Source: Phyllosticta citribraziliensis
Taxonomy: Eukaryota
Direction: 5' to 3'
Length of the DNA: 64,000 nt
NCBI RefSeq assembly: GCF_038025025.1
Contig: NW_027117341.1
Coordinates: 124,001-188,000 of the forward strand
The notes under the pieces were generated by a model. It was not told the origin of the DNA and searched no databases. It saw nothing but the letters and a program-made list of their open reading frames with translations. The position numbers and the translations under genes were made by a program. Every line of letters begins with the position of its first letter. The stretch's first letter is position 1. Positions 10,201 to 10,748 of the stretch are shown here, one piece after another.

Positions 10201-10380
10201 TTCCATCGCCGAGAGTCGAACTCGGGTCTCCAGGCAGACTCCTCGCTTGCGCAAGCCAGTCACCACCACGCAACACACCAAAATGCTCAGCTTGTACGGC
10301 TACAAAGAGGTGACACGCTCGTGGGCAATGCGGCGTGCGTGAATATTTGGCCTGGCGTGCTGCCACTGCACCACGATGGA
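10201..10380 (-). ncRNA. tRNA-like Pol III gene copy 1, with ~109-nt insert at the anticodon position
   Basis: Acceptor TCCATCG/CGATGGA+A, D arm GTGC-AGTGGCA-GCAC, stem CCAGG/CCTGG, variable AGAC, T arm CCGAG-TTCGACT-CTCGG. Downstream T5, upstream TATA. Confidence 0.85.
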
Positions 10381-10551
10381 TTGATTGTTGAATGAGTCTC
10401 CGCTGGCGGAGTATATATGGCCTCGCTCGGCACTCTGGGTGAGGTGAGAAAGCCGATATCAAGCCCTCCAACAAAGGAAGCCACCACCGGCGCCATTTTC
10501 AAAACGACCACTCCCTATCCAAACACCAAAAAAGAAAAGACGAGCAGGCAG

Positions 10552-10748
10552 TTCCATCGCCGAGAGTCGAACTCGGGTCTCTAGACTGACAAGCTCGAAA
10601 GCAAGCCCGCACCACGCAACGCGCAACACCGTGAACAGCAGCCATTCAGGTTTCCCTTGTAGCTCTTATCTCAGTGGGCGGCACGCTCGTAAGCAATGCG
10701 GCGTGCGCGCATGTTTGGTCTGGCGTGCTGCCACTGCACCACGATGGA
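10552..10748 (-). ncRNA. tRNA-like Pol III gene copy 2, with ~126-nt insert
   Basis: Acceptor, D and T arms identical to copy 1. Stem CCAGAC/GTCTAG. Downstream T4-C-T6. Confidence 0.85.

Follow-up and report, generated by a model that had tools for sequence, protein, structure and literature searches.

Two intact tandem tRNA-like genes and one decayed copy lie on the minus strand of a 64-kb stretch of the Phyllosticta citribraziliensis genome (contig NW_027117341.1, positions 124,001 to 188,000; this whole stretch is called the window below). Each intact gene is a tRNA body whose anticodon loop is interrupted by a long insert, and in both of them the canonical splice junction leaves no usable anticodon loop. 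Parts of the insert are better kept than the spacers around the genes, and contigs from public sequencing runs carry further members of the family. From their sequence, we propose that the two intact genes, and the dead one before its decay, belong to a tRNA-scaffolded RNA polymerase III non-coding RNA, a reading to which we give a probability of about 0.45.

In the proposed gene, the A and B boxes within the tRNA halves would act as the internal RNA polymerase III promoter, with a TATA-like box upstream and a T-run downstream as the remaining elements. After transcription by RNA polymerase III, the folded halves would form a framework of acceptor, D, anticodon-stem and T helices; RNase P and RNase Z would trim its ends, and the framework would protect the RNA. 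The domain of 116 to 133 nt that breaks the anticodon loop 5' of the former anticodon would be retained as the working part of the molecule. It would present a conserved hairpin whose loop letters recur in other members and which may be a binding site for a protein or another RNA, and a 3' frame, a 3' hairpin and a middle hairpin that can be exchanged would lie in this domain as well. In place of a decoding tRNA, the genes would yield a natural equivalent of the "tRNA scaffold" used in the laboratory.

Anatomy of the genes and their inserts

The genes and their flanking signals are located as follows:

10200..10380, minus strand: copy 1 tRNA-like gene, 181 nt; its insert-less form is a 72-nt cloverleaf that passes ARAGORN
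10551..10748, minus strand: copy 2 tRNA-like gene, 198 nt; body as in copy 1
10897..11010 (about), minus strand: decayed third copy, seen in repeat families D2, D4 and D6 and by comparison with the intact copies
10182..10186, minus strand: T5 run, 14 nt beyond the end of copy 1; likely RNA polymerase III terminator
10528..10538, minus strand: T4 and T6 runs 3' of copy 2; likely terminator
10412..10418, minus strand: TATATA-like box, about 35 nt upstream of copy 1
about 10787-10793, minus strand: ATATAA box upstream of copy 2

Both genes have the same body, with acceptor strands TCCATCG/CGATGGA, D arm GTGC-AGTGGCA-GCAC, variable loop AGAC and T arm CCGAG-TTCGACT-CTCGG. The five-pair anticodon stem reads CCAGG/CCTGG in copy 1 and CCAGA/TCTAG in copy 2. 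Compared to copy 1, the copy 2 stem shows a two-sided change at pair 31-39 (A-U for G-C) and one C.A mismatch. By sequence, both genes have the features of a type 2 (tRNA-type) RNA polymerase III gene, namely, an internal A and B box and a T-run downstream: we take TGGTGCAGTGG and GAGTTCGACTC to match the A-box and B-box consensus of this gene type, and the T-runs, which in both genes lie within 25 nt of the 3' end, are presumably terminators. The TATA-like boxes lie about 35 to 45 nt upstream overall. We also observed CAACAA-type motifs in the 20 nt upstream of several family members, to which the window copies add ATCC repeats (10749-10800 and 10381-10400, minus strand). In the fungus, RNA polymerase III genes may have such motifs as a start-site element.

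In the decayed third copy, the 5' exon is mostly gone, an extra 19 nt stand ahead of the degraded T arm, the T-arm remnant is 65% identical to the reference copy, and the tail reads GAGTCTGCCTGGAGA. This copy gives a picture of what becomes of an unconstrained copy here and points to birth and death of copies at the locus.

The inserts comprise the following parts, with RNA positions numbered from each gene's own 5' end:

10235..10350, minus strand: copy 1 insert, 116 nt between the anticodon-stem strands (RNA 31-146)
10586..10718, minus strand: copy 2 insert, 133 nt between the anticodon-stem strands (RNA 31-163)
10314..10339, minus strand: copy 1 conserved 5' frame, CGCACGCCGCATTGCyyACGAGCGTG with CC for yy (RNA 42-67); local hairpin with loop CGCAUUGCCCACGA
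10682..10707, minus strand: copy 2 conserved 5' frame (RNA 42-67), matching copy 1 save for UU instead of CC in the loop
10276..10312, minus strand: copy 1 variable middle (RNA 69-105), with a hairpin UUGUA-GCCG-UACAA at RNA 76-89 and a U4 run
10625..10676, minus strand: copy 2 variable middle (RNA 73-124), one irregular hairpin with tip GGGAAACC; GG-GAAA-CC at RNA 93-100
10264..10274, minus strand: copy 1 3' frame GUUGCGUGGUG (GTTGCGTGGTG as DNA), RNA 107-117; GUGUG at RNA 103-107 adjoins it 5'
10610..10620, minus strand: copy 2 3' frame GUUGCGUGGUG (GTTGCGTGGTG as DNA), RNA 129-139; GCGCG at RNA 125-129 adjoins it 5'
10237..10261, minus strand: copy 1 3' hairpin GACU..GCUU-GCGC-AAGC..AGUC, followed by UG and then the stem
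10589..10610, minus strand: copy 2 3' hairpin, 9 bp around CUUU, followed by CAG and then the stem

In both copies, CCAAA stands directly after the 5' strand of the anticodon stem (RNA 31-35). The strings named in a first-pass annotation of this DNA (CCAAA, the 26-nt block, GTTGCGTGGTG and both middle hairpins) were each found on the minus strand where it had placed them, as were the 3' hairpins GCTTGCGCAAGC in copy 1 and GCT-TTCG-AGC in copy 2. The pairing it had drawn between GTTGCGTGGTG and GCACGCCGCA can form at 8 of 10 positions, but it contains two central mismatches and no fold prefers it. The hairpin of the 5' frame can be drawn in two registers, because CACGC is present twice. The blocks common to both copies go far beyond chance: allowing up to three mismatches, the 24-nt core of the 5' block has two matches in the 64 kb, compared to 0 expected in 100 shuffles, and the 3' tRNA half likewise has two matches in the window compared to 0 expected in 100 shuffles.

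We compared the two copies part by part. With gaps excluded, identity was 97% in the 5' exon and 94% in the 3' exon, 84% in the 5' frame and 87% in the 3' frame, 72% in the middle, and 75% and 70% in the flanking spacers. When gap columns were counted, the value for the middle was 47% and those for the spacers were 51% and 59%. Between the two paralogues of the window, divergence of the middle is close to that of the spacer, and the frames have been kept better. This agrees with the earlier proposal of a constant frame around a variable middle (84 to 87% versus 72%). Insert divergence equal to that of the spacers, with no covariation across orthologs, had been named as the outcome that would speak against that proposal; such divergence was seen for the middle between the window copies, but not for the frames.

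The interrupted anticodon loop

At default settings, ARAGORN made no call at the tRNA-like locus. With introns allowed, it returned Val(GAC) and Arg(GCG) for two near-identical genes, with intron sites that differ; we regard these calls as forced fits. When the insert was excised by script, a 72-nt cloverleaf was obtained for both copies, and ARAGORN accepted all eight junctions tested per copy. Junctions placed 5' of a relic GTC gave Asp(GUC), which suggests descent, most likely, from tRNA-Asp(GUC). Judged by these sequence features, the body of the genes is tRNA-derived, with tRNA-Asp as the most likely source.

A usable anticodon loop has 7 nt and carries U33, a sense anticodon and a purine at position 37. 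The canonical eukaryotic junction 37/38 results in the loops CCAAATG in copy 1 and CCAAACG in copy 2, both of which have C at 33, a pyrimidine at 37 and AAA in place of the anticodon. In copy 1, none of the tested junctions yielded U33 together with a purine at 37. In copy 2, a cut right after the stem or after C32 gave the loop TTGTCAG or CTGTCAG, respectively, as in a normal-looking tRNA-Asp(GUC). Furthermore, in intron-bearing tRNAs position 32 pairs with a purine three bases before the 3' junction, and here position 32 has no such partner. We also scanned both copies with a custom script for the bulge-helix-bulge motif (helix, 3-nt bulge, 4-bp helix, 3-nt bulge, helix, with one imperfect central pair tolerated). 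Among the top 12 candidates listed per copy, none was common to both copies, and none gave a tRNA-sized product cut in the anticodon region. Because the canonical loop is unusable, no listed bulge-helix-bulge candidate is shared and the ARAGORN calls conflict, the genes as they stand would, on their sequence, give no decoding tRNA by any known fungal route.

These data bear directly on the possibility that the insert is a true, very long tRNA intron. It would be cut at 37/38, the exons would be ligated and an intron of 109 to 126 nt would be released as a product with a function or a regulatory role, comparable to free or circular tRNA introns. Alternatively, an intron 5' of the anticodon would leave copy 2 as a working tRNA-Asp, in favour of which the two normal-looking loops of that copy speak. 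The insert indeed lies within the anticodon loop of an otherwise perfect cloverleaf, and its 5' side, CCAAAYAU, is single-stranded in the constrained copy 1 fold. Both window copies and, as read from a loose end, also a relative from sequencing run X3 have a hairpin ahead of the 3' junction, while a consensus from run X4 is less clear in this respect. The length would be tolerable as well, since a review gives 6 to 133 nt for eukaryotic tRNA introns, places them at the canonical position and describes their cutting as guided by a ruler mechanism and not by a fixed motif (PMC4090602). However, the same review reports non-canonical positions in eukaryotes only from a few algae and nucleomorphs (PMC4090602), and the canonical cut leaves an unusable loop in both copies. 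Moreover, copy 1, for which no tested junction restores the loop, is the very copy that has been kept in a related organism (organism C, below). With position 32 unpaired and no listed bulge-helix-bulge candidate in common, we consider a spliced intron rather unlikely.

Relatives and constraint on the insert

Contigs of four public sequencing runs were aligned to positions 9950-11050. Such contigs carry no expression, end or splicing information, and parts of the window without contig cover were not counted as evidence. In organism C (run X5), one 280-nt contig spans 10176-10383 (208 nt, including all of copy 1) and differs from the window by 7 substitutions and, in the flank downstream, by an insertion of 2 nt. 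Five of the substitutions could be placed, all of them in the insert (RNA 34, 43, 57, 58 and 140); the remaining two are close to the ends of the alignment (within 30 nt), and the copy 1 counterpart thus shows 5 to 7 differences in 181 nt. No placed difference falls in RNA 59-139, a segment that covers all of the middle and the 3' frame and the greater part of the 3' hairpin. In organism C, the middle of copy 1 is therefore invariant and not free to vary.

Downstream of the gene, the alignment of this contig stops. By hand comparison, its 30-nt loose end is identical to the window at 19 of 30 positions; its first 19 letters agree at 17 positions, which marks the flank as homologous, though diverged. 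The insert differs at 5 of 116 positions and this flank at 11 of 30 (Fisher p about 1e-5), a contrast that is overstated because the flank stretch was taken where the alignment ended. A second flank piece from the same run (10050-10108) differs at 10 of 59 positions. Frames that stand above the spacers and a copy 1 insert kept beside a diverged flank are in good agreement with the earlier statement that the insert does not behave as a neutrally drifting intron. By these comparisons the insert is constrained, which refutes neutral drift of an intron as far as the frames are concerned and, in the lineage of copy 1, also as regards the middle.

A different picture was obtained for copy 2 in a surface metagenome (run X4). 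One contig (record 11, depth 2.9) matches 10601-10791 and carries 19 substitutions plus 10 indel letters inside 10625-10676, the 52-nt copy 2 middle. Across the remaining 139 nt of the alignment, of which 43 nt are upstream spacer, 3 substitutions are listed and there can be no more than 4 (p about 4e-9). The middle of this relative, and no other part, appears to have been replaced, far faster than the spacer has changed, as judged from a single contig of depth 2.9 in which errors or chimerism are possible.

Other contigs showed that the family extends further. A contig of run X2 has both exon ends with 145 other letters between them, and in further contigs of X2, X3 and X4 a shared exon is followed by insert sequence of another kind. 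Where downstream loose ends of other family members are shown, they carry T4-T5 runs of their own. By hand reading of loose ends, two further members (four with the window copies) have the 5' insert hairpin with differing stems and with the loop letters GCCGCA followed by ACGA or UGA; the stem is GUACGC/GCGUAC in one of them, and UGC/GCA is visible in the other. The X3 member has a different 3' hairpin, UCCG-UUA-CGGA, followed by UCAG and then the stem (hand reading of a loose end). At the same site, the X4 loose end is a consensus of two contigs agreeing at 0.68, in which a similar hairpin forms only with wobble pairs. These contig sequences point to a small tRNA-derived gene family across a group of related filamentous ascomycetes.

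Two contigs with the 3' exon stood out by their depth. X2 records 1 and 3 (2.2 and 3.4 kb), which match 10200-10233, have mean depths of 381 and 856, compared to 10 to 20 for the single-copy contigs of the window. Some family members, or just the 33-nt 3' exon piece, may therefore be inside a high-copy repeat. These depths would suit a selfish or decaying repeat, in which a tRNA-Asp gene was hit by an insertion, multiplied by duplication or retroposition and homogenised by gene conversion, and in which the RNA has no function. The tandem duplication with its dead third copy, the insert ends, which form an imperfect inverted repeat at 8 of 10 positions, and the spacer-like divergence of the middle between the window copies would also be explained in this way, as would the patch replaced in the middle of the X4 relative, which is what gene conversion would do. 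However, the copy 1 counterpart of organism C differs at only 5 to 7 of 181 positions beside a homologous flank (17/19) that has diverged, and the dead copy shows that unselected copies decay here. Additionally, the layout is not that of a short interspersed nuclear element (SINE): each copy has its own T-run and ends in the 3' acceptor strand, with no tail. We therefore doubt that the genes are a functionless repeat.

The tRNA-scaffold reading is supported by the anticodon stem, in which pair 31-39 is kept through a two-sided change, and by several local elements: the 5' hairpin with its conserved loop, the middle hairpin and the 3' hairpin. A number of points weigh against it. Only two full-length sequences are available; the other members are represented by differences, by joints and by loose ends no longer than 30 letters, taken from low-depth k-mer contigs that are possibly chimeric. 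The identity of the exons could stem from gene conversion among the copies and not from selection on the RNA, and the overstated contrast between insert and flank in organism C belongs here as well. Furthermore, folding gives no strong sign of a structured whole. Neither the whole genes (z -0.46 in copy 1 and -1.76 in copy 2) nor the whole inserts (z +0.25 and -0.85) were more stable than their shuffles.

RNAalifold, proposed in the first-pass annotation as a check, paired RNA 40-44 of the two copies with the GYGYG just 5' of the 3' frame. In this helix, one pair is altered on both sides (A-U versus G-C) and one is G.U versus G-C, with short CA/UG and CCA/UGG extensions. However, enforcing the helix on the cloverleaf costs 1.6 kcal/mol in copy 2 and 11 kcal/mol in copy 1, and the G-to-U at RNA 43 in both relatives would break it. 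The check thus returned a helix with one two-sided change that is cheap in copy 2 only, and we regard this helix as a candidate only. In these models, the two copies are without a convincing common global fold, which adds to the points against a tRNA-scaffolded RNA.

The first-pass annotation had favoured a constant frame that presents the middle as an antisense guide segment or a small-RNA precursor, with different members aimed at different targets. Frames that are constant while the middles differ between members, and changes of the X4 relative that are concentrated in the middle, would fit such a function. Taken by itself, the copy 2 middle forms a hairpin of significant stability (z -3.79, matched by 0 of 200 shuffles), whereas the copy 1 middle showed no significant stability (z -0.46). 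A precedent exists in Neurospora milR-4, an RNA polymerase III tRNA-linked small RNA processed by RNase Z (PMC3547838). However, matches of the inserts to the rest of the 64-kb window, antisense or sense, reached only 9 to 15 nt. The best were two exact 14-mers (24239-24252 and 27827-27840, E 0.025 each), which is near chance for GC-rich sequence, so the suggested antisense check produced no match clearly above chance. Neither insert has a C box or a stem of about 20 bp for Dicer, the whole inserts fold no better than shuffles, the middle diverges like spacer between the copies, and the copy 1 middle is invariant in organism C. A guide or small-RNA precursor is thus very unlikely to be what these middles encode.

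One might also imagine a programmable family of scaffolded RNAs in filamentous ascomycetes, in which a tRNA chassis with a constant docking hairpin would carry an exchangeable middle cassette that determines the binding partner of each RNA. Members or strains would exchange this cassette more quickly than the DNA around it changes, as in the X4 relative. We regard this extension as a long shot. An aptamer role of the insert, which had been suggested together with the guide, or a protein-binding role is possible from its sequence and would fit the tRNA-scaffolded RNA that we propose.

Class searches and known systems

Rfam gave 0 matches over the whole window at the gathering score and 0 at E values up to 10 for positions 10100-11100. 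Self-cleaving ribozymes, signal recognition particle RNA, RNase P/MRP RNA, 5S RNA, U6, small nuclear RNAs and small nucleolar RNAs were rejected as classes, being without an Rfam match. A tRNA-derived SINE was rejected as well, given that the unit ends in the T arm and 3' acceptor strand, without an A-rich tail or one resembling a long interspersed nuclear element. A box C/D guide in a tRNA intron was rejected by reading, as neither insert contains UGAUGA and CUGA is present without a partner box. Similarly, a microRNA-like precursor with a stem of about 20 bp or more was rejected, the longest unbroken helices being of 9 bp at most.

Searches in metagenomes found 0 loci with the 24-nt 3' exon string. 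The 20-nt string of D arm and stem was found at 6 loci, none of them related: three are one bacterial-type tRNA-Met(CAT) (L002, L004 and L005), and the other three are GC-rich and without tRNA-like features. We regard the exact 20-nt string common to the bacterial tRNA-Met(CAT) and the fungal genes as a coincidence between tRNA bodies. A literature search that included literal DNA and RNA strings found no description of such genes, subscription journals and supplements being outside its reach.

Elsewhere in the window, ARAGORN called a 93-nt tRNA-Ala(CGC) at 53321-53413 (plus strand) with mismatched pairs, an oversized variable region and no Rfam match, which is probably a false positive. The window also contains two open reading frames (ORFs) with HET (heterokaryon incompatibility) domains (21418-23100 and 58333-61737, both minus strand), an elongation factor 3 ORF (47484-50471, minus strand) and an SNF2-family helicase ORF (25412-28183, plus strand). 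Comparison with a protein atlas placed the window in Ascomycota and no lower, and its assignment to Pezizomycotina is based on the two HET-domain ORFs and elongation factor 3. The ORFs neighbouring the tRNA-like genes (8742-9275, 9157-9810, 12745-13335 and 13098-13916) had no Pfam family match. Positions 6001-8000 are 63% G+C with a GC skew of 0.20 and an AT skew of 0.22, and overlap a 666-aa ORF (6382-8382, minus strand) without a Pfam family; this stretch may be a low-complexity protein or a repeat.

If the RNAs are expressed and stable, filamentous fungi would have a class of small non-coding RNA that is new and that exemplifies the tRNA scaffold in nature. The tRNA chassis could be used to express guide RNAs or aptamers in fungi. 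If the inserts are instead spliced, they would be among the longest nuclear tRNA introns and a test of how far the ruler of the splicing endonuclease reaches. For annotation, the genes are a trap in either case, as default tRNA finders miss them and intron-tolerant settings give conflicting Val and Arg identities.

Among known systems, tRNA-derived SINEs of fungi share tRNA descent, A and B boxes and several copies per genome, and consist of a tRNA-like head followed by an unrelated body and tail. In the genes described here, by contrast, the insert is flanked by a tRNA half on either side, and the acceptor stem closes the unit, followed by a terminator. Intron-containing nuclear tRNA genes of eukaryotes are alike in the interruption of a full cloverleaf in the anticodon loop and in their RNA polymerase III gene features. 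They differ in that the canonical junction here leaves no usable anticodon loop and in that all family members seen carry long inserts, one of them with 145 nt between the matched exon parts. The insert length is at the top of the 6- to 133-nt range given for eukaryotic tRNA introns in PMC4090602. Related known cases are long conserved tRNA introns and the tRNA intronic circular RNAs of animals (PMC6614914).

The archaeal pre-tRNA-Trp intron with its box C/D guide likewise places a long functional RNA inside an interruption of the anticodon loop. However, that intron combines a bulge-helix-bulge motif, C/D boxes and a working tRNA-Trp (PMC4090602), whereas the genes here have neither the motif nor the boxes. 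Neurospora milR-4 is likewise from a filamentous ascomycete, and it uses a tRNA promoter and tRNA end-processing enzymes for a non-tRNA product, as we propose here. Its hairpin lies between two complete tRNA-Ala of the same transcript and is freed by RNase Z and Dicer (PMC3547838), while here the cargo is inside a single tRNA body and has no long stem. The same architecture is found in the laboratory tRNA scaffold of Ponchon and Dardel, in which a foreign structured RNA is placed in the anticodon arm and is processed and stabilised by the cells (PMC3753655 and PMC3401473). In both, an intact acceptor, D and T frame holds a structured cargo instead of the anticodon loop. The laboratory scaffold is engineered and used in bacteria (PMC3753655, PMC3401473), whereas the genes of P. 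citribraziliensis and its relatives would be a natural, predicted fungal nuclear gene family of the same design.

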